From: a virus
Taxonomy: Duplodnaviria > Caudoviricetes
IMG/VR virus record: IMGVR_UViG_3300032265_002598
Location: 1-64,000 of that record
Reading direction: 5' to 3' (one strand)
Length of the DNA stretch: 64,000 bases
Below are positions 17,989-36,553 of this stretch, in pieces (the stretch's first letter is position 1; each line of letters starts with the position of its first letter). The notes beneath the pieces were generated by a model, which saw only the letters and a list, made by a program, of their open reading frames with translations, was not told the origin of the DNA and made no database searches. The position numbers were made by a program, and so were the translations under genes.

Positions 17989-18939
17989 TTAGAGTGCTTG
18001 AGCGAACTCCATAGCCTTCTCCAACGCTTTCGTGTTGTCGTTGGCGTTGAGTCCGAACCACAGGCTGTCGAGACGGTTATCTTCCGTTCGACCCTTGTTG
18101 TAATTCAGATACTCGTTGTAGCCGTTGTACGCAGCCCACCAAGTTCCACGAACACCCGTCGCACTCTGCTTCGGGCCTTCGACCAGATTCAGAATCTCGT
18201 CCATGATGTTTCTGGTACGAGTCTTGATCTGATCGTCCGGTGTACCGTCAATGTCAAGCATCACCTTGACATACCGACGAACATCGGCCTGATTGAAATT
18301 CTTGGACGCAAGGAATTTGAACTGCTCCGCAGTTGCTTCAAACTCCATGTTGATGTTGTCCATGATATCTCGCACGTTTTCCAGATTGGTCTTGCTGGAA
18401 CGTGTGTGACGAATCCGAATCAGCTTGGAACCACTGCTCTTGCTATGGGCCATTGCCATAGTGTTAGCACACACAACGCGGATCGGCGTATAGCCGACAC
18501 GGATAGCGGTCGTGCCATCGTGCGAGTTGCTGAGAAGAATAAACTTCCCAACCTCGTCACCCTTCACGATCTCGCTATTGTCGCGGTTCAGTTGGGCCAG
18601 CACCCAAACCTTCTGACCGCTGTGGAGCGAACCAGCAGTATGCAATGCACACTCGCCAGCGTCCAGAAACGGCTGGAACCAATCGAACGCTTCGCTGTTT
18701 TGCAGCGGAGTGTATCGTGGGCCGACAACGCCCAGAATACTGTGGTCTGTCTTGCGATAGGTCGCACGGGCCGGAACCGGCTCGCTGTCCACCGTAAACA
18801 AATCCTTCAGACCGACTTCCCAATCCAAACCGGCAGCGGTCATCGCTTCCGAAACCGTGGGAGCCTCGTCGAGCTTGTTGCCCAGACCGTGCCACGGGGT
18901 CGCACCAACAAACATCATCTGTTCAACTGCATGAGCCAT
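17989..18939 (-). CDS. DUF932 domain protein (phage/plasmid-like protein)
   Basis: Start MAHAVEQMMFVGATPWHGLG after AAAGGG; AGSLHSGQKVW, LLSNSHDG, TPIRVVCANT, GTWWAAYN. Confidence 0.92.
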   Translation of the reverse strand: MAHAVEQMMFVGATPWHGLGNKLDEAPTVSEAMTAAGLDWEVGLKDLFTVDSEPVPARATYRKTDHSILGVVGPRYTPLQNSEAFDWFQPFLDAGECALHTAGSLHSGQKVWVLAQLNRDNSEIVKGDEVGKFILLSNSHDGTTAIRVGYTPIRVVCANTMAMAHSKSSGSKLIRIRHTRSSKTNLENVRDIMDNINMEFEATAEQFKFLASKNFNQADVRRYVKVMLDIDGTPDDQIKTRTRNIMDEILNLVEGPKQSATGVRGTWWAAYNGYNEYLNYNKGRTEDNRLDSLWFGLNANDNTKALEKAMEFAQAL

Positions 18940-18982
18940 AATCATCCCTTTCGTGTTACTGTTCAATCGTTCTACTCCACTC

Positions 18983-19011
18983 ATTCTACAGTATGTTATC
19001 GTCACTGTCAA
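18983..19011 (-). promoter_or_regulatory. sigma70-type early promoter
   Basis: TTGACA-GTGACGATAACATACTG-TAGAAT. Confidence 0.88.
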
Positions 19012-19041
19012 GCGAAAACTTTGGAAAAAATTTCCTTGTCG

Positions 19042-19119
19042 CAAGTCGTTGGTGTGTAAGCACTTGCGTCAAACGCGGCCGGCCGACCTTTCCCTAAGTC
19101 TAATCAGGATAAGGGTTTA
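19042..19119. repeat. family A element, copy 2
   Basis: Two 25-bp boxes, 53-bp spacing. Confidence 0.9.
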
Positions 19120-19609
19120 CATAAGGGTTTAGAAGAACTGTCCCGAACTGCTTCTCAAAATATTTAGAATTGGAAGCATTGAAAGCACACTCCTCACCCA
19201 TGTAGAAATATGCACCAATACATTTTGCTCGCGGAGTATCAAAATGAATACTGCCAATAATATGTTTAATTGTATCACCAGAGCAAATCAAATCATCCAC
19301 AATAACATACCGAGATGGAGATACTCCTTCGATATAAAATTGACTATACCGTCTTTCATCCTTACGAACAACGATAATATTCTTATTGAGAATCTCCGCA
19401 ATCTGTGGCACTACCATCAAACCACTTACGCCACAACAAGCAATACTATCAAAATCATTCTCAATCTTACGCAGAGAACAGACAGCCTTGATAATCACAC
19501 CATTCCGATATTTGTGATTTAATACTCGGCTAGTATGAGCAGCCCCTTGAATGATTTTACCATCTGGGGTACGCCGAAAGTCATCAAGCTCTTGCTGGAA
19601 AGCGTTCAT
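19100..19609 (-). CDS. type I phosphoribosyltransferase
   Basis: GVSGL, VVRK, YVIVDDLICSGDT PRPP-binding motif. Confidence 0.88.
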   Translation of the reverse strand: MNAFQQELDDFRRTPDGKIIQGAAHTSRVLNHKYRNGVIIKAVCSLRKIENDFDSIACCGVSGLMVVPQIAEILNKNIIVVRKDERRYSQFYIEGVSPSRYVIVDDLICSGDTIKHIIGSIHFDTPRAKCIGAYFYMGEECAFNASNSKYFEKQFGTVLLNPYVNPYPD

Positions 19610-19611
19610 AA

Positions 19612-27304: not shown

Positions 27305-27333
27305 ATTGTACACTACTATTATCGGCCTGTCAA
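27305..27333 (-). promoter_or_regulatory. sigma70-type early promoter
   Basis: TTGACA-GGCCGATAATAGTAGTG-TACAAT. Confidence 0.88.
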
Positions 27334-27364
27334 GAGGAAAAACTTGAGCAAAAAAAGATTGTCG

Positions 27365-27442
27365 TAAAGTGTTGGTACATAAAGACTTACGACGCGTCGG
27401 GCGGGCCGACCTCGCCCTAAGTCCTTTGGTGTCAAAGGGTTA
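27365..27442. repeat. family A element, copy 8
   Basis: Two 25-bp boxes, 53-bp spacing. Confidence 0.9.
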
Positions 27443-27478
27443 GGGGTTGGTCAGTTAGTATGCAGAAGCTGCTGCTTT

Positions 27479-27883
27479 TTAGAGCAGGCTAGCAACCCCG
27501 CTCTTGAACAGAACCTTAGCAAGCAAAGGCTTTCGGCAGTTACTCACACGCTCTGCATAAAAGTTGCGAACTTTCCCGTCCGCAGTTCTACACGTTACCA
27601 GATTAGCGGTACGAATGAACTCAGGATCACTAGCACGATAACGACTCTTACGATTGAGTCTCGCAATCTGGTCAGCGGTCAACGTCTGCTTACCGATCAC
27701 CTTAGCAAGAAAACGCTCATGCGTTCCATGCAGTGGCTGCTGGTAAACAAAATTGAAAACCTGACCCTCTTGGGCATTCGCCAAGTTGGCCTTACTTCCA
27801 CCGTAAACGGAATAGAAGACAAAAGCCGAAATGGCACAAACAACAGCAAAACCAATACCAGTCAACGTCACAATATCACTCAT
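27479..27883 (-). CDS. membrane-anchored hypothetical protein
   Basis: Start MSDIV after AAGGG; N-terminal TM helix. Confidence 0.7.
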   Translation of the reverse strand: MSDIVTLTGIGFAVVCAISAFVFYSVYGGSKANLANAQEGQVFNFVYQQPLHGTHERFLAKVIGKQTLTADQIARLNRKSRYRASDPEFIRTANLVTCRTADGKVRNFYAERVSNCRKPLLAKVLFKSGVASLL

Positions 27884-27928
27884 AAGAAACCCTTTCAAAT
27901 TGAAAAACCAATCTACATCCATGCCACA

Positions 27929-27957
27929 AGTCTACACTAATTATCGACATTTGTCAA
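27929..27957 (-). promoter_or_regulatory. sigma70-type early promoter
   Basis: TTGACA-AATGTCGATAATTAGTG-TAGACT. Confidence 0.85.
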
Positions 27958-28202
27958 GAGGGAACTTTAGAAAAATTTTCTTCCCAGTATTCTACCATTT
28001 CAGCCATGTTGATACCGCTATCATTCCATGCTACCATATCTGCGGTTTCCAGACAGCCATCTTCCCGCATACCCTGTACGAATTCAGCATAATCAGAACA
28101 ACCCTTAGCAAAGTTATTCAAGCCCTCATCATTGCTAATCCACAAACAAACATTCCACGTTTGATAGTTTGCGTAACCGTTATAGCTTCCGTCGGGACTC
28201 AT
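27954..28202 (-). CDS. conserved phage protein (YNGY-NY-TWNV-LW family)
   Basis: YNGYANYQTWNVCLWISNDEGL motif. Confidence 0.75.
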   Translation of the reverse strand: MSPDGSYNGYANYQTWNVCLWISNDEGLNNFAKGCSDYAEFVQGMREDGCLETADMVAWNDSGINMAEMVEYWEENFSKVPS

Positions 28203-28232
28203 GTCTTCACCCTTGCCTTTCTTCTATATCGT

Positions 28233-28261
28233 ATTCTACTATCTATTATCGTCTATTGCAA
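28233..28261 (-). promoter_or_regulatory. sigma70-type early promoter
   Basis: TTGCAA-TAGACGATAATAGATAG-TAGAAT. Confidence 0.8.
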
Positions 28262-28300
28262 GGGGTAAACTTGAATCTTAAGAGATTGTAAGGATCGACG

Positions 28301-28378
28301 TAAAGTATTGTGGAATAAGGACTTACAGCTCGGCCGGCGGCTCGCCCTTGCTCTAAGTTGTTTAGAGTCAAGGACTTA
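28301..28378. repeat. family A element, copy 9
   Basis: Two 25-bp boxes, 53-bp spacing. Confidence 0.9.
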
Positions 28379-28380
28379 TG

Positions 28381-28917
28381 TCAAACTTTACAAACTTGAC
28401 GCTTTTTTGATCGGTCTAATTTTTTGAAGTCTGTACCCGGCAGTTTATTTAGGTCTGTTGTTGTAATATGAATTGAACAAACATCTTCATACTTATTACT
28501 AACAAACTCCATAGCAGTAGCTTTACTCATCCATTTTGTAACTACGCCTGTTGGTGTTACATAACTAAGAACAAGGATATCAAATTTCTCTAATTGAATA
28601 TGCTTGAATTTGAAAGAGTAAGAAATAATCTTTTTGCTATTAGCTCCCACCCTTGGACTTGCAAGAGATGATTTTACTTCAACCCGTGTTCTTTTATTAA
28701 TTGTAATATCGTGTGAGTGACTTCCCCCATGGTAATTACCCATATGTTTCTTCAACAATTCATCTCTAACCATCTTTTCGATAGCATGACCACGAAATTG
28801 GCTGTTCATTTTAGACAGACGATAAGCTATCTCACTTTTTGAGATATAAAAGATATTAGGCTTATTCAATCCCTTAAGCTCTGGCATAACGCGATTCAAA
28901 TGACGCATTGTGAACAT
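28381..28917 (-). CDS. PD-(D/E)XK endonuclease-like protein
   Basis: GHAIE ... HDITINKRTRVEVKSS catalytic pattern; AGGAGG RBS. Confidence 0.65.
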   Translation of the reverse strand: MFTMRHLNRVMPELKGLNKPNIFYISKSEIAYRLSKMNSQFRGHAIEKMVRDELLKKHMGNYHGGSHSHDITINKRTRVEVKSSLASPRVGANSKKIISYSFKFKHIQLEKFDILVLSYVTPTGVVTKWMSKATAMEFVSNKYEDVCSIHITTTDLNKLPGTDFKKLDRSKKRQVCKV

Positions 28918-28998
28918 AACCTTCCTCCTTTGGTTGTGTCATTCTACAGGAGTATCGGTTGTTGTCAATAGATTTAGTGACAAATTTTTCTTTTGTCA

Positions 28999-29076
28999 TA
29001 AGTCTATATGAGATAAGAACTTACGTCAAATCCGGCCCGCCCCGTCGGCCCTAAGTGCTTGAACACAAAGGGTTTA
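28999..29076. repeat. family A element, copy 10
   Basis: Two 25-bp boxes, 53-bp spacing. Confidence 0.9.
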
Positions 29077-29094
29077 CGACGAGAGATTATTTTT

Positions 29095-29325
29095 TTACTC
29101 AAAATCAACAAAGATGATTTGAGCATAACCGCGAGGCTTGACGGTATATCCGTCACCGTAATCGCATGTATCGGCCTTGACCGCAGTCATACCAGCCAGA
29201 GCCTTAGCCTTACGAACAACGCTACGCTGGCTAGCATTTTTCTTGGGAATAAACTCATAACGATTCACCCAACCATAGTTAGCTTCGCCACCAAACGTAT
29301 CCGTATGAGTCACAACGCACTTCAT
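29095..29325 (-). CDS. conserved phage protein
   Basis: TDTFGGEANYGWVNR motif. Confidence 0.75.
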   Translation of the reverse strand: MKCVVTHTDTFGGEANYGWVNRYEFIPKKNASQRSVVRKAKALAGMTAVKADTCDYGDGYTVKPRGYAQIIFVDFE

Positions 29326-29463
29326 TTTGCCAATTCCTTTGCTTTCATGGTTTCAAAATACAACTGTTCCAACAGCTTAACTTTACTTACTGCACGACCA
29401 GCTTCACGATTCATGAGTATAACAGCTTTCTGATGTGCTGTCAATGGTTTCTTTTTCATCTTA

Positions 29464-29739
29464 TTAATCCTCGTATGGGCCATCTTCATTGTAGTCTACA
29501 AATCCCACAGCCTCATCGGCATGGAAATCCTCTTGGTAATCCTCTTGATAATCTAAATCTTCCCCATAGAAACCGTAGTCCTCATCGGTTCCCCATCCAG
29601 CGGAAGCCAACGCAGACTCAGCATCACCATCCATACTATCATCAAACGAATCATCATCAACCTCATGGTCAGAATAGTCAGAAGCCATGCACTCACCGTA
29701 GAAATCTTCAACATCGTCGTATTCGTAGCTCATGGTCAA
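29464..29739 (-). CDS. hyper-acidic small protein
   Basis: D/E-rich with no K/R; DGDAESALASAGWGTDEDYG. Confidence 0.8.
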   Translation of the reverse strand: MTMSYEYDDVEDFYGECMASDYSDHEVDDDSFDDSMDGDAESALASAGWGTDEDYGFYGEDLDYQEDYQEDFHADEAVGFVDYNEDGPYED

Positions 29740-29799
29740 TCCTTCACAATGGTAGTAATGTAGAGCAGGCCAACATAGGACGCAACGAAAGCAATCGCA

Positions 29800-29973
29800 C
29801 TAAGCATCAATATACTCCTCTGGAACGAAATCGTCAACAGCACCCACCACTTCTGCCCAATCCCAAAAATTCACTTCCACACTAGGATCGTCGATAGGCT
29901 CGACCATCGGCTCAACAATCCCCTTTTCGGCCATGTCGTTCAGAATGTCATTGATCTCGTCGAAGTTCAGCAT
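29800..29973 (-). CDS. acidic small protein
   Basis: Start MLNFD; D/E-rich. Confidence 0.65.
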   Translation of the reverse strand: MLNFDEINDILNDMAEKGIVEPMVEPIDDPSVEVNFWDWAEVVGAVDDFVPEEYIDA

Positions 29974-30058
29974 GATTCTGTTTCCTATGGGTTTCCTTGT
30001 GATGCTTCGATTATACACTTATCATCGATATATTGCAAGCCCCACATAAAATTTCTTT

Positions 30059-30076
30059 CCTTACATTTTCGTAAGG
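30059..30076. promoter_or_regulatory. family C palindrome CCTTAC-N6-GTAAGG
   Basis: Also at 30937, 31626, 31950, 32763, 33214, 34372. Confidence 0.75.
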
Positions 30077-30092
30077 TTCGCCGGCTATCGTT

Positions 30093-30108
30093 TGGCACGG
30101 CATTTGCT
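30093..30108 (+). promoter_or_regulatory. sigma54 (-24/-12) consensus site
   Basis: TGGCAC-GGCAT-TTGCT, GG-N10-GC. Confidence 0.7.
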
Positions 30109-30122
30109 GTTGGGAGTTTTCA

Positions 30123-30200
30123 TAAAGTGTTGCAGGATAAGCGCTTATGGCTCGCTGGGCCGGCCGAACTCGACGTAAGTCCTTATGAGTTAAGGAGATA
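30123..30200. repeat. family A element, copy 11
   Basis: Two 25-bp boxes, 53-bp spacing. Confidence 0.85.
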
Positions 30201-30576
30201 CGTCAAGCCACACCCAAGAACAAAAGCTGTACCTAATAGAATATAATCACTAATTTTCATCATTTTCCTCCATATGCATGATATGTGACATAGTAGCAGA
30301 GAGTAAGATACCGACAATATAACCAAAAGCAACGCTAATAAAATCAAATTGATACATCCCTGTATCTCCAGTGTTATTGGGTCAATCCCCATATCCCACC
30401 CAAAACTCATCACCATTTTCATCTTTCATAAGAGTAAAGCCCCTAGACTTCATCCTCTCATATTCACCAAATCTCTGCCAGACTTCACAGATAGTTTCCA
30501 TACCACTGAGCATCATCCCCATAACCCACACAAACGGATATTGAATCATTCTCATAACTTTCTCCTATTCTGCACC

Positions 30577-30605
30577 ATTCTACACTATTATAATCGGCTT
30601 GTCAA
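30577..30605 (-). promoter_or_regulatory. sigma70-type early promoter
   Basis: TTGACA-AGCCGATTATAATAGTG-TAGAAT. Confidence 0.85.
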
Positions 30606-30620
30606 GGGCCCCGACTTTAG

Positions 30621-30665
30621 GCTGACTATACCCACCCAGCCCGAATCCGTAGGATTAGCTCGGAC
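30621..30665 (-). repeat. 45-bp repeat family B, copy 6
   Basis: gctgactatacccacccagcccgaatccgtaggattagctcggac. Confidence 0.85.
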
Positions 30666-30677
30666 AGTTATCTGTCC

Positions 30678-30857
30678 TTATTTGACAGACTCCATGTGTT
30701 CAAACGTGATGCACTTGTCCAGATAGATTGACCGATACCCCTGTTCGGCCTTGACCGTCAGGAGAACACGATCCCCAAACCCTCGCACGTTGACAACTTC
30801 ACCATTGACGATTTCACCATTGTCATATTCCGCAAAAACAAAGTCACCGATTTTCAT
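30678..30857 (-). CDS. small beta-rich protein (59 aa), paralog of 34112..34300
   Basis: Not in track; MKIGDFVFAEYDNGEIVNGEVV...GYRSIYLDKC. Confidence 0.75.
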   Translation of the reverse strand: MKIGDFVFAEYDNGEIVNGEVVNVRGFGDRVLLTVKAEQGYRSIYLDKCITFEHMESVK

Positions 30858-30969
30858 TGTTCTACCCTTTTCCTTTTCTCTTACTTGTTATATCGACATT
30901 ATACCAAAGGATATTTAGCTTGCAAGCGAAAAGTTTCCTTACAATTCCGTAAGGTTCGCGGAGAAAGTT

Positions 30970-30985
30970 TGGCACACCATTTGCT
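30970..30985 (+). promoter_or_regulatory. sigma54 consensus site
   Basis: TGGCAC-ACCAT-TTGCT. Confidence 0.7.
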
Positions 30986-30999
30986 ATAGAGACTCGACG

Positions 31000-31077
31000 T
31001 AAAGTGTTGGCACATAAGCACTTAGAGCAAATTCGGCCCGCAAAATTCGTCGTAAGTGCTTTAGCAGCAAGGGTTTA
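31000..31077. repeat. family A element, copy 12
   Basis: Two 25-bp boxes, 53-bp spacing. Confidence 0.9.
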
Positions 31078-31220
31078 CGACAAGTTTTTGAGTCTGCGCC
31101 TGTACACCCGTTTACCATCCACCCAAATGGGTAGGTATAGCCTAGGGTACAACTGAACATATGTATTCTTTACTAGACGCTCAGTCTCTAGTGTAACATC
31201 GTACACTAGTGTACAGTTGT

Positions 31221-31547
31221 TCATTCTGTATCCTTGAAGTTGAACGGACTGATTTCCAAATGCTCAACAACACCATATTGCTTTGCGAGTTCTTCAACAC
31301 GTTCACGCGAACCCGGCTTACCAACTGGAACGATCATAGTATCCTCACCACCAGAGTACCGCGGATCGACCTTTTCCTTTTTAGATTTGCCAAGATTCTT
31401 CAAGGCTGTCCGATTGAACTTCAGAACCTTTTCCACTTGGATCATCTCACCGTCAATGTCTTTCACTTCAGTCGGAATCGCCATACCAAGAAAGCACAGA
31501 CGGGCTTGACGCTTGGCAGCTTGAATGATCGGGAACTTGGTAGCCAT
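31221..31547 (-). CDS. hypothetical protein
   Basis: GAGGA RBS; follows promoter near 31587. Confidence 0.75.
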   Translation of the reverse strand: MATKFPIIQAAKRQARLCFLGMAIPTEVKDIDGEMIQVEKVLKFNRTALKNLGKSKKEKVDPRYSGGEDTMIVPVGKPGSRERVEELAKQYGVVEHLEISPFNFKDTE

Positions 31548-31654
31548 GTTTCTTATCCTCTAGGGTTATCGTTCTCTTGTGAGTGTATTATACCAAACTG
31601 ATTTTCAATGTCCAGCAAAATCTTTCCTTACATTTTCGTAAGGTTTCTCGTCTC

Positions 31655-31879
31655 TCACACAGGAGTCGGATTCGACCGGTAGTATTTTGCCCACAGATCA
31701 TCGATCACGAACTGGACAACGCGATCATGTGAACCACGGCAGACATAGTAGCCCATGTGGATATCGAACAGAGCAAACGATCCATCCTCTTTCGGATGAA
31801 ACGTAAACCCACACTTGTAGGCGTAGGCGTTGATCTTACCCTTGACAGTCGAACTTTTCGGAGGCTTTCTCATTTTCAT
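31655..31879 (-). CDS. hypothetical protein
   Basis: AAGGA RBS; follows promoter near 31911. Confidence 0.7.
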   Translation of the reverse strand: MKMRKPPKSSTVKGKINAYAYKCGFTFHPKEDGSFALFDIHMGYYVCRGSHDRVVQFVIDDLWAKYYRSNPTPV

Positions 31880-31981
31880 TCCTTCTTTCTTCTCTTGTTC
31901 TTATATCGACATTATACCATATCCTCTTTAGGTTACAAGCAAAATCTTTCCTTACAAAGCTGTAAGGTTCGCCCGCCATAT

Positions 31982-32040
31982 TGGCACAGCATTTGCTATG
32001 TGCAATTATCATGCCAAACTTTTTTGGCACAGCATTTGCG
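31982..32040. promoter_or_regulatory. triple sigma54 site cluster (+,-,+)
   Basis: TGGCAC-AGCAT-TTGCT (+31982), TGGCAT-GATAA-TTGCA (-32016), TGGCAC-AGCAT-TTGCG (+32025). Confidence 0.75.
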
Positions 32041-32053
32041 TTGCCACTTGACG

Positions 32054-32131
32054 TAAAGTGTTGGTACATAAGCACTTATGGCAAATTCGGCCCCGAAAAT
32101 TCGTCGTAAGTCCTTTGGTGTCAAGGGTTTA
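32054..32131. repeat. family A element, copy 13
   Basis: Two 25-bp boxes, 53-bp spacing. Confidence 0.9.
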
Positions 32132-32157
32132 CGTCGAATCTTTTGTACACTACTATA

Positions 32158-32475
32158 CTACTGTATAGTCATCCCCTCAATATAGGGGAATACCTTACCA
32201 TTTGTGTGTACGTTCCACTCTCCCTTAGTTTGTCGAACATATCCCGGTATATACTTATTCATTCGATCCTTAGTCGTTGGACTATACCATCCCCCATTTC
32301 GCAGGGTATAGGTATTATCCTCATGGATTGTCACGACATAGGTACTGTGTAGCATGATCCCTACGCTACCATTCGGCAGAATTTCAGCATAGGTGTTGTT
32401 GCCTACCTTGCGGGATTGCCGGCCTGTCTTACCATGTACCATCTTTACTGCTTCGGCGTGTGTCATTTTGTTCAC
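32158..32475 (-). CDS. conserved phage protein
   Basis: RKVGNNTY...LHST.VV...LRNGGWYSPTTKDRMN motif. Confidence 0.75.
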   Translation of the reverse strand: MNKMTHAEAVKMVHGKTGRQSRKVGNNTYAEILPNGSVGIMLHSTYVVTIHEDNTYTLRNGGWYSPTTKDRMNKYIPGYVRQTKGEWNVHTNGKVFPYIEGMTIQ

Positions 32476-33232
32476 CAGCTTTCGCTGATCATCCCTAGTA
32501 ATTGTTGAAGAAACTGTAAAATCTCTTTAATGTTATAAGTAGCATAATCTACATAACCATCGGGCAGATACCTAGACATAATTCCCTCAGTCGTTGTCGT
32601 GAAGAATGGAATGGATAGCGTCGGCAACTTGACCCGCAGTGTAACTAATAAAACCACAGAAGCATAGAAGGCCGGCCAATACGATATAATCTACAAATGT
32701 CAACATATTTTTTCTTTTCTATTGTTTTCCTATTATACTCTATCGTTTGCCGGCCTGTCAATCCTTACAATATTGCAAGGCATCCTGCATATTAGCTAAT
32801 TCGGCTTTGAGTTGTTCTAAGCTATACATTTCACGACCGGGCCAATAATCCCCGATCATGTCTTTCAGATTGAAGATATAGATTTCAACTTCTTTTTTTG
32901 TCATATTCTGTATAGCGTAACTTTTTTTCATTTCTTTTCTCTTTTCTTTTCTCTATTATACTCTATCGGCTATTCTGTTATCAACCCTTAGAGATCCCAA
33001 ATATTTTTTGAAGTATAGGGGAGCAAATCATCAATCGGGAAGCCCGTAGCTTCTGCAACAATCTTTCGGGCTGTAATCCAGTCAGCCGCTTTTGCTTGAC
33101 CGATAAACTTGTGATCGCCATAGCTGAAGAAGTAAAACGTTTTCATTTTCTTTTTTCCTTTTCTCTTGTTTCTCTATTATACAGTATCGGTTATTGTCTT
33201 GTCAACTCTTGAACCTTGCAATGTCGTAAGGT

Positions 33233-33481
33233 TCAGGCAAAATCCTCTTCACCAAAGAAATCATCGAGCCATTGATCGTCAGTCTCGATATGATCCTCAG
33301 CATCCCCCATAATGGGGTCCCAACCTTCGCCATCGTCAAGGCCGGGAATGTAGTCGGCTTCCATGCTATCGTCTGCAATGATCGTGCAATGCTCACCACA
33401 CTGCGAGCAAATCTCATGATCCACATTGCTTTCAGCATTGCAGCAATCGGAAACGTATAAGGTATTCTTTTCCATTTTCAT
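33233..33481 (-). CDS. zinc-finger + hyper-acidic tail protein
   Basis: SDCCNA...ICSQCGEHC followed by a D/E-rich tail. Confidence 0.75.
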   Translation of the reverse strand: MKMEKNTLYVSDCCNAESNVDHEICSQCGEHCTIIADDSMEADYIPGLDDGEGWDPIMGDAEDHIETDDQWLDDFFGEEDFA

Positions 33482-33613
33482 TTTCTCTTTTCTTTCTTGT
33501 TCTCTTTTCTCTTATATCGACATTATACAGTAGATTCTGAAACATTCAAGCAAAATCCAAAAAGATTTATGTCAAGAGATTTTGACAAAACTTTTCATCA
33601 TTTTCTATACGAT

Positions 33614-33672
33614 TGGCATACCATTTGCCCTATGCAATTATCGTGCCAAACTTTTTTGGCATGAAATTTGCT
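33614..33672. promoter_or_regulatory. triple sigma54 site cluster (+,-,+)
   Basis: TGGCAT-ACCAT-TTGCC (+), TGGCACG-ATAA-TTGCA (-, perfect consensus), TGGCAT-GAAAT-TTGCT (+). Confidence 0.75.
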
Positions 33673-33711
33673 GTGTGTTAAGATAGGTAAGATTGGGCCA
33701 AAAACGTGTCG

Positions 33712-33789
33712 TAAGTCATTGCAGCATAAGCACTTACGACGAGCCGGCCGCCGCGAATTTGACGTAAGTCCTTTATCCATAAGGGTTTG
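33712..33789. repeat. family A element, copy 14
   Basis: Two 25-bp boxes, 53-bp spacing. Confidence 0.9.
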
Positions 33790-34111
33790 CGTCAAGCCGG
33801 CCAGTATACAAGCGTATACCCTACAGGATAGCGTATAGCTCACCTAGTAGAGTACATGCCCTATATGCTAGAACAGTTAGCAGTATACAGGCGATCAGGT
33901 CTACAATTATCATACACACGCCTCTTCTTTAGCTTGGAGAGATTCAACAAGAGCCCAACATTCATTGAACGTGATATGTCGGGCGATTACCACCCCACCA
34001 TACCACACTTCATATCGATCCCCTGTACGATTGGAAGTATTCCAGTAGATCATTTTCTTTTGCATGGCTTGTATCCTCTTTTCCGTATTGTATACGTTGT
34101 CCGTTTAGGTG

Positions 34112-34300
34112 TCAAGCGGTAGCCAAATAATTGCAAGAAACACACTTGTCGAGATACATTGAACGATATCCAACATTCTCGATTTTCAACGTGAACAACA
34201 GGCGATATCCTTCCATATACTTGACGCTCACGATTTCCCCAACAAACTTTTCACCCGTAGCATATTCGACCGAGACGTTGTATCCGATTTCCATTTTCAT
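34112..34300 (-). CDS. small beta-rich protein, paralog of 30678..30857
   Basis: GYRSMYLDKC shared motif. Confidence 0.75.
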   Translation of the reverse strand: MKMEIGYNVSVEYATGEKFVGEIVSVKYMEGYRLLFTLKIENVGYRSMYLDKCVSCNYLATA

Positions 34301-34399
34301 TTCCTTTTCTTTATCGTTCGTTTCTTGTTTCTGTATTATACATATCGTCTTTTGAGTGTCAACAGCTTGAACCTTACAATATCGTAAGGTTCGCCGGCC

Positions 34400-34633
34400 T
34401 TACGGAAGATAGGCTTCATCTACAACATAACCCATTTCGTCAATTTCAATCCATCCACCATCGTCAAGAAATCCGATTTCTCCGTCAATGCAGATTTGGT
34501 TGTATCCACTCTCACGAACCTTTTCTAGCAGATCGCCAGCAAATGCAACCTGATTCACCAGAGTATCCATTGAACCTCTGTTGAGCAGTTCAGTCAGTTC
34601 AGCCACAGTATTCAGTACGATCATGTTTTTCAT
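34400..34633 (-). CDS. hypothetical protein
   Basis: Start MKNMIV after AAGGA; downstream of promoter near 34668. Confidence 0.7.
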   Translation of the reverse strand: MKNMIVLNTVAELTELLNRGSMDTLVNQVAFAGDLLEKVRESGYNQICIDGEIGFLDDGGWIEIDEMGYVVDEAYLP

Positions 34634-34718
34634 TTTCTTATCCTTTTCTTTTTTCTCTTGTGCTTTCATTATACAGTATTTATCGACCATTTCAATAGAA
34701 AAAATAAAAAATTCCAAA

Positions 34719-34767
34719 ATATAATTTCATGCCAAATAATTTTTTTCTTTTTGGCATACCACTTGCG
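34719..34767. promoter_or_regulatory. sigma54 sites (degenerate -, good +)
   Basis: TGGCAT-GAAAT-TATAT (-), TGGCAT-ACCAC-TTGCG (+34752). Confidence 0.6.
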
Positions 34768-34780
34768 TTAAAACTTGACG

Positions 34781-34858
34781 TAAACCATTGGCACATAAGC
34801 ACTTAGGACGAATTTTCGGGATAGAGATCTTCATAAGTCCTTTGTTTATATACCTTTA
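34781..34858. repeat. family A element, copy 15 (degenerate right box)
   Basis: TAA starts 53 bp apart. Confidence 0.8.
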
Positions 34859-34990
34859 CAGAAGAAGGGGGTTTTTTCATTCTCCCCAGATAAGAGCGAA
34901 AACTCTTGAAAAAGGCCGGGTGGTCCAAAAATAGTAGGCACCACCATATATAATTGGCCAGTTTATTAGCCAGTATTCCCCACCTTTAAT

Positions 34991-35030
34991 AAAAAAGCCC
35001 CTGGCATTCATTTCTACCAGAGGCTTTCTT
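34991..35030 (-). terminator. intrinsic terminator
   Basis: AAAGCCTCTGG...CCAGGGGCTTT-TTT. Confidence 0.8.
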
Positions 35031-35757: not shown

Positions 35758-35922
35758 ATGACTAATCCTGAATTTAATATTGTCGATTCCATATTGACCG
35801 TTAAAGCATCCGGAACAGACCTCAATATCGACCAAGATCTATCACTTCCTCAAGGAAAGAGTATAGCTCAGTTATTATATGACCAAGAAAATTACCCAGT
35901 CAAAGAAGACCCCCAAGAATAA
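35758..35922 (+). CDS. hypothetical protein
   Basis: ATG after AAGGAG. Confidence 0.6.
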   Translation: MTNPEFNIVDSILTVKASGTDLNIDQDLSLPQGKSIAQLLYDQENYPVKEDPQE

Positions 35923-36553
35923 AACTCTTCCTGATCAATTGCCCCACGGTGTTACTGAAAAAGAGTTCCTATCAGTATTAGATAATATAAGCAAAAGATT
36001 AGGCCACAAATTTAAATTTGGCTATCATAGTTTCGATGATATGAAGCAACAAGCTGCTATATTTGCTTTGGAAGGTCTACAAAAATATGATAATAAAAGA
36101 CCTCTTGAAAACTTTTTATGGACCCACGTTAGAAATCGCCTCTTCAACTATAAAAGAGATAACTATCAAAGGCCCGATAAACCCTGTTTAACTTGCCCCC
36201 TATATGATGCTCATTGTAAAAAATCCACTAGTGGTTGTTTAGAATATGACAATAAGACCGACTGTGAATTATATCAAACATGGGATGCCAGAAATTCATC
36301 CAAAAAGAACATTATGAAACCCATAGGAATGGATGATGTTCAAGATACTTCCCACAACCACCACAAAACCACCGATGTTCCCAATACTGTTTTTAACAAA
36401 CAAATAATTGACCTATTAGACCAACACATTCCTGCACAATATCGTGAGACCTATCTTAGACTCAAATATGGAGAAAAGATATACAAAAGCGATATGACCA
36501 AATTACTTTCAGTTATCACAGATCTTTTAAGAGAACATGGCTATGAATACTAA
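35879..36553 (+). CDS. RNA polymerase sigma70-family factor with Cys-rich insertion
   Basis: Region-2-like DDMKQQAAIFALEGLQKYDNKRPLENFLWTHVRNRLFNYKR; region-4-like IIDLLDQHIPAQYRETY. Confidence 0.75.
   Translation: MTKKITQSKKTPKNKTLPDQLPHGVTEKEFLSVLDNISKRLGHKFKFGYHSFDDMKQQAAIFALEGLQKYDNKRPLENFLWTHVRNRLFNYKRDNYQRPDKPCLTCPLYDAHCKKSTSGCLEYDNKTDCELYQTWDARNSSKKNIMKPIGMDDVQDTSHNHHKTTDVPNTVFNKQIIDLLDQHIPAQYRETYLRLKYGEKIYKSDMTKLLSVITDLLREHGYEY

Follow-up and report, generated by a model that had tools for sequence, protein, structure and literature searches.

Sigma-54-type boxes at the early-gene cassette boundaries of an uncultured giant siphophage

The early region and its boxes

The stretch of DNA analysed in this work (the window) is the first 64 kb of the 201,067-bp IMG/VR virus record IMGVR_UViG_3300032265_002598, with 34% G+C, whose source is an uncultured giant siphophage. 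Leftward of about 35.7 kb it holds small minus-strand genes, nearly all of which have their own near-consensus TTGACA/TATAAT promoter. In total, 13 strong leftward promoters of this sigma-70 type were counted, and we call the leftward genes early because these promoters are of the host type. The subject of this report is a set of nine short boxes, TGGCA(C/T)-N5-TTGC, which occupy the boundary modules of the first five leftward early-gene cassettes, near the point from which the two gene arms diverge. An initial annotation had interpreted them as -24/-12 sites for RNA polymerase carrying sigma-54 (RpoN). The boxes do behave as -24/-12 elements in sequence comparisons, and we think that they are probably used by the sigma-54 polymerase of the host.

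All nine sites announced by the initial annotation were found, within 30093-34766. When a strict site is defined as an exact TGGCAY-N5-TTGC, shuffled sequences give a chance expectation of 0.27 per 64 kb, and none of 100 shuffles reached the nine that are observed. Moreover, these nine are the only strict sites of the whole 201,067-bp genome, and in all of them GG and GC are exactly one helical turn apart. The minus-strand site at 33648, which had been described as perfect, reads TGGCACG-ATAA-TTGCA. Six of the boxes form two triplets with the same internal spacing, as had been noticed, with left edges at +20 and +43; the +19 given previously is a difference in counting. A tenth site (minus strand, 34734), already called degenerate when it was proposed, lacks TTGC and is no site by the same rule.

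Along the plus strand, the order of a module is leftward gene, leftward sigma-70 promoter, an inverted repeat named family A, the box or boxes, a double-hairpin repeat named D1, and the end of the next upstream gene. The box clusters had been placed between family A and a sigma-70 promoter; they actually lie between family A and D1, with the sigma-70 promoter beyond family A. Elements resembling sites for integration host factor (IHF) had also been reported, and a search of 29.8-35.1 kb for the strict IHF consensus (WATCAANNNNTTR) gave no match. These are the two parts of the sigma-54 interpretation that found no support. The boxes are given below with their predicted transcription starts (+1), placed 12 nt past the C of the GC (19 bp from the motif centre) by a rule taken from PMC4591121.

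30093-30107, plus strand: box 1 (TGGCACGGCATTTGC); predicted +1 near 30119, 4 nt inside the D1 copy 30115-30212
30970-30984, plus strand: box 2; predicted +1 near 30996, 4 nt inside the D1 copy 30992-31089
31982-31996, plus strand: box 3, opening triplet 1; faces box 4, their TTGC elements being 5 bp apart
32002-32016, minus strand: box 4, triplet 1; forms a tandem with the sigma-70 promoter 31938-31911, which serves gene 31655-31879; +1 predicted near 31990
32025-32039, plus strand: box 5, closing triplet 1; +1 predicted near 32051, 5 nt within the D1 copy 32046-32143
33614-33628, plus strand: box 6, first member of triplet 2; faces box 7, with 5 bp between their TTGC elements
33634-33648, minus strand: box 7 (TGGCACGATAATTGCA), triplet 2; forms a tandem with the sigma-70 promoter 33549-33522, which serves gene 33233-33481; +1 predicted near 33622
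33657-33671, plus strand: box 8, closing triplet 2; +1 predicted near 33683, 21 nt short of the D1 copy 33704-33801
34752-34766, plus strand: box 9; predicted +1 near 34778, 5 nt inside a D1-like half element starting at 34773
34720-34734, minus strand: decayed copy (TGGCATGAAATTATA) without TTGC, back to back with box 9

Five of the boxes point into D1 and two (32016 and 33648) into genes, in tandem with sigma-70 promoters. The latter two, on the minus strand, have the same direction as the early genes and are about 65-70 bp upstream of the sigma-70 promoters. The face-to-face junctions, at 31993-32005 and 33625-33637, read TTGC-N5-GCAA, which is the dyad class of the enhancer sites described below for related phages. 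Two other assignments of the boxes were rejected. Read as sigma-70 promoters with TTGGCA as the -35 element, they give only 9-of-12 matches at three sites, which is the chance level; an iteron-type replication origin, which would have helically phased direct repeats in a single block beside an AT-rich unwinding region, is at odds with sites of mixed orientation spread over five intergenic regions across 4.7 kb.

The other components of the modules are the following.

30115-30212: D1 double-hairpin repeat, about 98 nt; cassette boundary and target of the rightward boxes
30992-31089, 32046-32143, 33704-33801 and about 34773-34870: other D1 copies adjacent to boxes
30054-30089: family A inverted repeat (CCTTACA-N4-CGTAAGG), with the boxes on one side and the leftward sigma-70 promoter on the other
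30932-30967 and 31945-31980: further family A copies in box modules
31621-31656, 33208-33234 and 34367-34402: family A copies without adjoining boxes
30010-30038, minus strand: leftward sigma-70-type early promoter, serving gene 29800-29973
30925-30898, 31938-31911, 33549-33522 and 34695-34668, minus strand: equivalent leftward sigma-70 promoters

At least nine aligned copies of D1 are present in 26.4-34.9 kb. A strand test on 126 copies gave a mixed result, in which the whole element is unbiased and G-U pairs are richer on the minus strand in the left hairpin and on the plus strand in the right one, so that a rightward D1 RNA is neither proven nor excluded. The presence of a T-run after D1 is not linked to that of a box. 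An Rfam search over the window matched tRNAs only, with no match at D1 or at the boxes. At the Cys-rich gene 33233-33481, the position that family A has in other modules, between the boxes (here the second triplet) and the sigma-70 promoter, is occupied by the palindrome TTGTCAAAATCTCTTGACA (TGTCAA-N6-TTGACA, at 33558-33577), which is conserved in many relatives, for example L017, L024 and L027.

Conservation of the box in related phages

Relatives were retrieved with the protein of a sigma-like gene next to the region (35879-36553) as the query. This gave 223 viral stretches, of which 80 loci with 57-96% protein identity were kept. Their 1.29 Mb contain 215 strict sites, roughly forty times the shuffle-based rate from the window, and nearly all of these sites are located to the left of the conserved sigma-like gene. 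In five complete relatives there are 2-7 strict sites per genome, 19 of the 25 being in the same region, and a control with the reversed pattern gave 0.

The logo built from 164 unique sites is TT-TGGCA-Y-R-N-N-A-T-TTGC-T, with nothing conserved beyond these 18 bp. Those of its positions that are outside the search pattern agree with the sigma-54 consensus, reportedly that compiled by Barrios et al. in 1999, whose secondary positions are a T preceding TGGCA, Y/R following it, a T-rich stretch ahead of TTGC and a W behind GC. The same positions resemble the motifs obtained for E. coli sigma-54 by chromatin immunoprecipitation sequencing (PMC4591121). Copies with one mismatch beside D1 alter only T1 or C4 of TGGCA and never GG or TTGC; they are about twenty times commoner than in shuffled sequences (8 of 122 elements versus 8 of 2440 shuffles). 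When the triplets are aligned across relatives, each TGGCA and each TTGC is invariant and the spacers vary. As the neighbouring bases drift while the two blocks stay the same, selection acts on the box itself throughout the family.

Most sites are single (104 of 160 unique sites, 65%). Among the pairs, the left-edge offsets are 19-21 bp for face-to-face sites (16 cases) and 22-33 bp for back-to-back ones (16 cases), and a few pairs are in tandem. The initial annotation had named, as what would overturn its own view, a phage repressor recognizing the palindrome TGCCAAA-N4-TTTGGCA formed by back-to-back sites. Such an operator was rejected on the mostly single sites, the variable back-to-back spacing and a logo without dyad symmetry; given the asymmetric motif and the large share of single sites, a repressor that binds a palindrome is unlikely.

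The position of the boxes in the modules is regular as well. Rightward boxes are phased to D1: 46 of 67 plus-strand sites are 41-50 bp before the D1 core and 0 are on its far side. Leftward boxes are 6-8 nt before family A, which is followed by the sigma-70 promoter, a conserved leader (ATATAAGAG...) and the gene, in an arrangement that is stereotyped in 18 cases. At equivalent module positions the box orientation differs between relatives, and both the number and the orientation of boxes vary independently of D1 and family A. In the relative L020 (5144-7000), the CGTAAG/CTTACG palindromes of D1 are replaced by CTGCCA-TTTT-GGCAG hairpins that flank a G+C-rich centre, and the boxes in front are unchanged. 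This replacement suggests that the D1 palindromes either change along with some phage-specific partner or matter solely as hairpins in RNA.

Boxes in place of sigma-70 promoters

In L015 (two sites), L024, L025, L026, L070, L082 and, more loosely, L031, the box stands where other versions of the module have the sigma-70 promoter. There, TTGC is 11-13 nt before a shared 5' leader (TAAGAAAG / ATAAGA), and in the sigma-70 versions TATAAT is 6 nt before this same leader; from these distances, the predicted starts coincide within about 2 nt. Between the direct boxes of these relatives and their genes, no above-chance sigma-70-like promoter was found.

Upstream of the direct boxes there are three dyads TWGC-N5-GCWA, mostly in the form of the 17-mer TGTTGCAAAATGCTACA, about 85, 105 and 150 bp before the GG and separated from the box by an A/T-tract spacer. 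This layout was found in L015, L024, L025, L026, L070, L082 and L084; examples of the dyads are at L015:5737-5801, L082:5958-6022 and L024:6326-6390 (minus strand). In L025 and L026 the central AAAAT of the dyads is inverted to GTTTT and the arms are kept. In all 48 pairs of a site and a GCAAAATGCTAC-type 12-mer within 400 bp of each other, the 12-mer is upstream of the box, 20-220 bp off. Three putative enhancer dyads, an A/T spacer and a box, in this order, are the arrangement that is classical for enhancer-dependent promoters. At 12 of 13 positions the dyad agrees with the LuxO site TTGCAWWWTGCAA (taken from PMC10162802), which we read as a resemblance to sites of the NtrC family and not as an identification.

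The genes served in this way by direct boxes are homologues, with 40-60% identity, of genes in the window. One of the latter deserves a separate entry.

33233-33481, minus strand: early gene, 82 amino acids, Cys-rich; in L015 and L031 a sigma-54-type box, preceded by dyads, is the predicted direct promoter of its homologues

Homologues of 34400-34630, 34112-34300 and 30678-30857 are likewise predicted to be driven directly by a box with dyads in relatives. Thus, homologous early genes carry a sigma-54-type promoter in some other phages of the family and a sigma-70 promoter here. In the window, three of these four genes are additionally preceded by a box cluster, and the fourth, 34112-34300, by a family A repeat alone.

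Activator, host and genome context

The initial annotation had stated that the window contains no activator gene, and this is borne out on a larger scale. No gene of this phage or of the five complete relatives encodes the DNA-binding domain of sigma-54, the AAA+ domain that interacts with sigma-54 (PF00158) or a Fis-type helix-turn-helix (HTH_8), and the GAFTGA motif is absent from every frame of this phage's genome. Dyads of the class TWGC-N5-GCWA are not enriched genome-wide, with 9 found versus 8 expected.

Concerning the host, an exact-protein look-up found identical phage protein sequences in a lake metagenome; the source lake is represented by ENA sample SAMEA4981773. The GDP-mannose dehydratase of the phage is about 50% identical to proteins of all phyla and gives no host pointer, and tblastn searches with DnaE, RIIA, a 734-amino-acid protein of the structural arm and the sigma-like protein found no close isolated phage. 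A composite pattern of dyad, gap and box had no match in 401 sampled Pseudomonadota.

The gene content of the phage includes an open reading frame of 5,679 codons, a DnaE-type polymerase that is split, RIIA, tRNAs, a transfer-messenger RNA (tmRNA) and a group I intron. The gene that opens the second arm is located just outside the box region.

35879-36553: sigma-70-family-like gene, 224 amino acids, opening the rightward arm; weak region 2 hit and a Cys-rich insert

This protein is conserved in more than 220 viral contigs with 57-96% identity, its gene is always first in the rightward arm, and it is probably the phage's own middle or late sigma factor. Some further observations concern the record and its RNAs. 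The ends of the record share a 123-bp overlap (1-123 and 200,945-201,067), listed there as a 'direct terminal repeat'; with an overlap of only 123 bp, the record probably is a circular assembly. Its position 1 is therefore an arbitrary choice, and the leftward arm continues from there round to about 120 kb. The G+C content is 41-47% at window positions 18000-35000 and 32-36% elsewhere in the genome, the richer part coinciding with the tRNA- and D1-rich early region. A second repeat of 68 nt is present at 26803-26870 and 30599-30666, with 84% identity, upstream of two leftward promoters. The tmRNA, in one piece, is at genome positions 195,235-195,586 (L004:15236-15587, minus strand; Rfam, 84 bits), has the short tag GKTSLALAA and adjoins a tRNA-Ile(TAT). 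The group I intron is at 189,733-189,926 (L004:9734-9927, minus strand; Rfam, 62 bits).

Proposed function and alternative explanations

We are moderately confident that the nine boxes are genuine sites of the host sigma-54 polymerase and that they are used as activator-gated promoters. The rightward boxes at 30093, 30970, 32025, 33657 and 34752 would give rise to a short RNA that begins with the first base of D1 or close to it, and this RNA would be antisense to the 3' end of the neighbouring early transcript. The leftward boxes at 32016 and 33648 would add a second, activator-gated promoter to genes 31655-31879 and 33233-33481. The boxes at 31982 and 33614 are so near the leftward boxes facing them that only one polymerase per pair would fit at a time: sigma-54 closed-complex footprints reach about -5, and as the TTGC elements are 5 bp apart, a polymerase on one seat of a pair would exclude one on the other. 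Firing would require an enhancer-binding ATPase, which would be supplied by the host. In this way, the phages probably tie some of their early transcription to a host sigma-54 activator that they do not encode.

Several facts weigh against this proposal. Face-to-face and back-to-back clusters are atypical of bacterial sigma-54 promoters. In L020 one box reads directly into an intrinsic terminator, which hints at a function that is not the production of a useful RNA. Between TTGC and the first hairpin, the distance can differ by as much as about 10 nt, and D1 is also present at many cassette boundaries that have no boxes, so D1 does not need them. The genome of this phage contains no copy of the upstream enhancer 12-mer, and the only TWGC-N5-GCWA dyads of the region are the two face-to-face junctions; thus, no enhancer is identified for the boxes of the window. 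The presence of rpoN in the host is a further issue: many abundant lake bacteria have no rpoN, and Synechococcus and Corynebacterium were negative in the control panel.

Part of this evidence suits an alternative that we consider unlikely, namely that the sigma-54 holoenzyme binds the boxes without transcribing, either as a decoy that titrates sigma-54 or as a roadblock that insulates the cassettes from read-through. The holoenzyme binds without an activator and is inactive at most of its sites in E. coli (PMC4591121). A location between D1 and the next promoter suits an insulator, and face-to-face pairs would be able to hold a polymerase in either direction; the lack of a visible enhancer for the nine window boxes and of a phage-encoded activator, the variable orientation at equivalent module positions and the boxes that read directly into terminators are also consistent with binding alone. 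On the other hand, there are complete relatives with no more than 2 sites in the region, which is not enough for a sink, and a decoy does not require the fixed phase of the rightward boxes to D1. A roadblock is also spoken against by the intragenic sigma-54 sites of E. coli, which in a roadblock test had no effect on overlapping genes (PMC4591121), and both versions by relatives in which the same box, with its upstream dyads, is the only visible promoter of a gene. It seems to us quite unlikely that the 18-mer is read by a phage-encoded factor (a regulator, a phage RNA polymerase or a sigma) and merely resembles a sigma-54 site, in a host that may lack sigma-54. The main support for it is the negative outcome of the host searches, to which a weak Kyanoviridae Gp96 domain hit and the group I intron, which may point to cyanobacteria, add hints of groups without sigma-54. 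Moreover, the sigma-70-family-like gene 35879-36553, so widely conserved, is beside the region, mixed-orientation clusters of sites are common for phage regulators, and the palindromes of D1 and family A have a half-site in common, which in L020 is altered in both at once, so that the region does hold phage-specific recognition elements. However, the motif equals the sigma-54 consensus at positions that were not selected for and in the mismatches that it tolerates, it is asymmetric and mostly single, and its two blocks 5 bp apart do not fit the geometry of the sigma-70 family. It does not occur in the remaining 190 kb either, which is where one would expect a phage sigma or polymerase to be active, and the three dyads, A/T spacer and box of the relatives are the classical enhancer-dependent arrangement.

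A third view, in which the boxes are passengers of mobile cassette-boundary modules and are kept as recombination points with no regulation, is in our opinion highly improbable. It takes its model from the promoter-early stem-loops (PeSLs), composite terminator/promoter repeats that mediate shuffling (PMC4122927). The early region indeed consists of small genes, each with its own promoter and separated by repeated elements, and homologous genes carry different types of promoter in different relatives. The D1 repeats with the leftward promoters show what marks a boundary of the PeSL type, that is, a repeated stem-loop plus an early promoter, small genes and a variable region. Passengers would nevertheless not explain why TGGCA and TTGC are invariant in the modules while their neighbours drift, nor why the orientation and number of boxes are independent of D1 and family A. 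Coming back to the use of the boxes by the host sigma-54 polymerase, a more elaborate version of it, to which we give little credence, would make the triplets a phage-specific switch with mutually exclusive seats, one directed into the early gene and one into the antisense hairpin RNA. The junction TTGC-N5-GCAA would bind a host activator of the NtrC/LuxO type, and the balance between sense and antisense output would be set by the signalling state of the host (nutrient status, cell density), with no regulator from the phage.

Comparison with known systems and significance

The phage boxes have the same bipartite sequence and spacing as bacterial sigma-54 -24/-12 promoters, such as glnAp2/NtrC and qrr/LuxO, and the relatives are also like them in the three dyads 85-150 bp upstream and in the A/T-rich spacer. 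Besides, five boxes of the window would drive short structured RNAs of about 100 nt, as happens with the qrr genes. Unlike the bacterial promoters, the phage boxes are in a lytic-type genome that encodes neither sigma-54 nor an activator, they form face-to-face, back-to-back and tandem clusters, those of the window are without a recognisable enhancer, and several point back into the end of the previous gene. We know of no mirror-image or triplet box clusters in bacterial genomes. Consensus boxes without a following gene have been described as intragenic and antisense sigma-54 sites of E. coli and Salmonella (PMC4591121, PMC3844500), where the holoenzyme is probably inactive and some sites are conserved. 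Those sites are scattered singly inside genes, whereas the phage boxes are intergenic, clustered and at a fixed position of the module.

The closest modular context is that of the PeSL cassettes of T4-type phages (PMC4122927, PMC2839356), which likewise are repeated modules of stem-loop and early promoter flanking small accessory genes in a plastic region. PeSLs have been described with sigma-70-type early promoters only, whereas here an extra box of the sigma-54 type is found between the stem-loop element and the promoter; in addition, this phage is a giant siphophage and no relative of T4. As to sigma-54 promoters in phages, the published precedent that we found is one phage, YuA, a much smaller siphophage of Pseudomonas. 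YuA uses sigma-70 as well as sigma-54 promoters, and the account of it in bioRxiv 10.1101/2023.10.13.562163 (citing Ceyssens et al. 2008) names, in the part consulted, one sigma-54-like promoter with a mapped start and describes neither clusters nor hairpin-linked modules.

The present analysis adds the swapping of promoters on homologous genes, the three-dyad enhancer of the relatives and the conserved triplet. A large family of giant freshwater siphophages has kept the box, which in them is interchangeable with sigma-70 promoters on homologous genes. As sigma-54 transcription is strictly gated by signal-sensing activators, a phage that uses sigma-54 could read the physiological state of its host without a sensor of its own. 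If this is true, the motif would also be a clue to the host, which would exclude hosts without rpoN.

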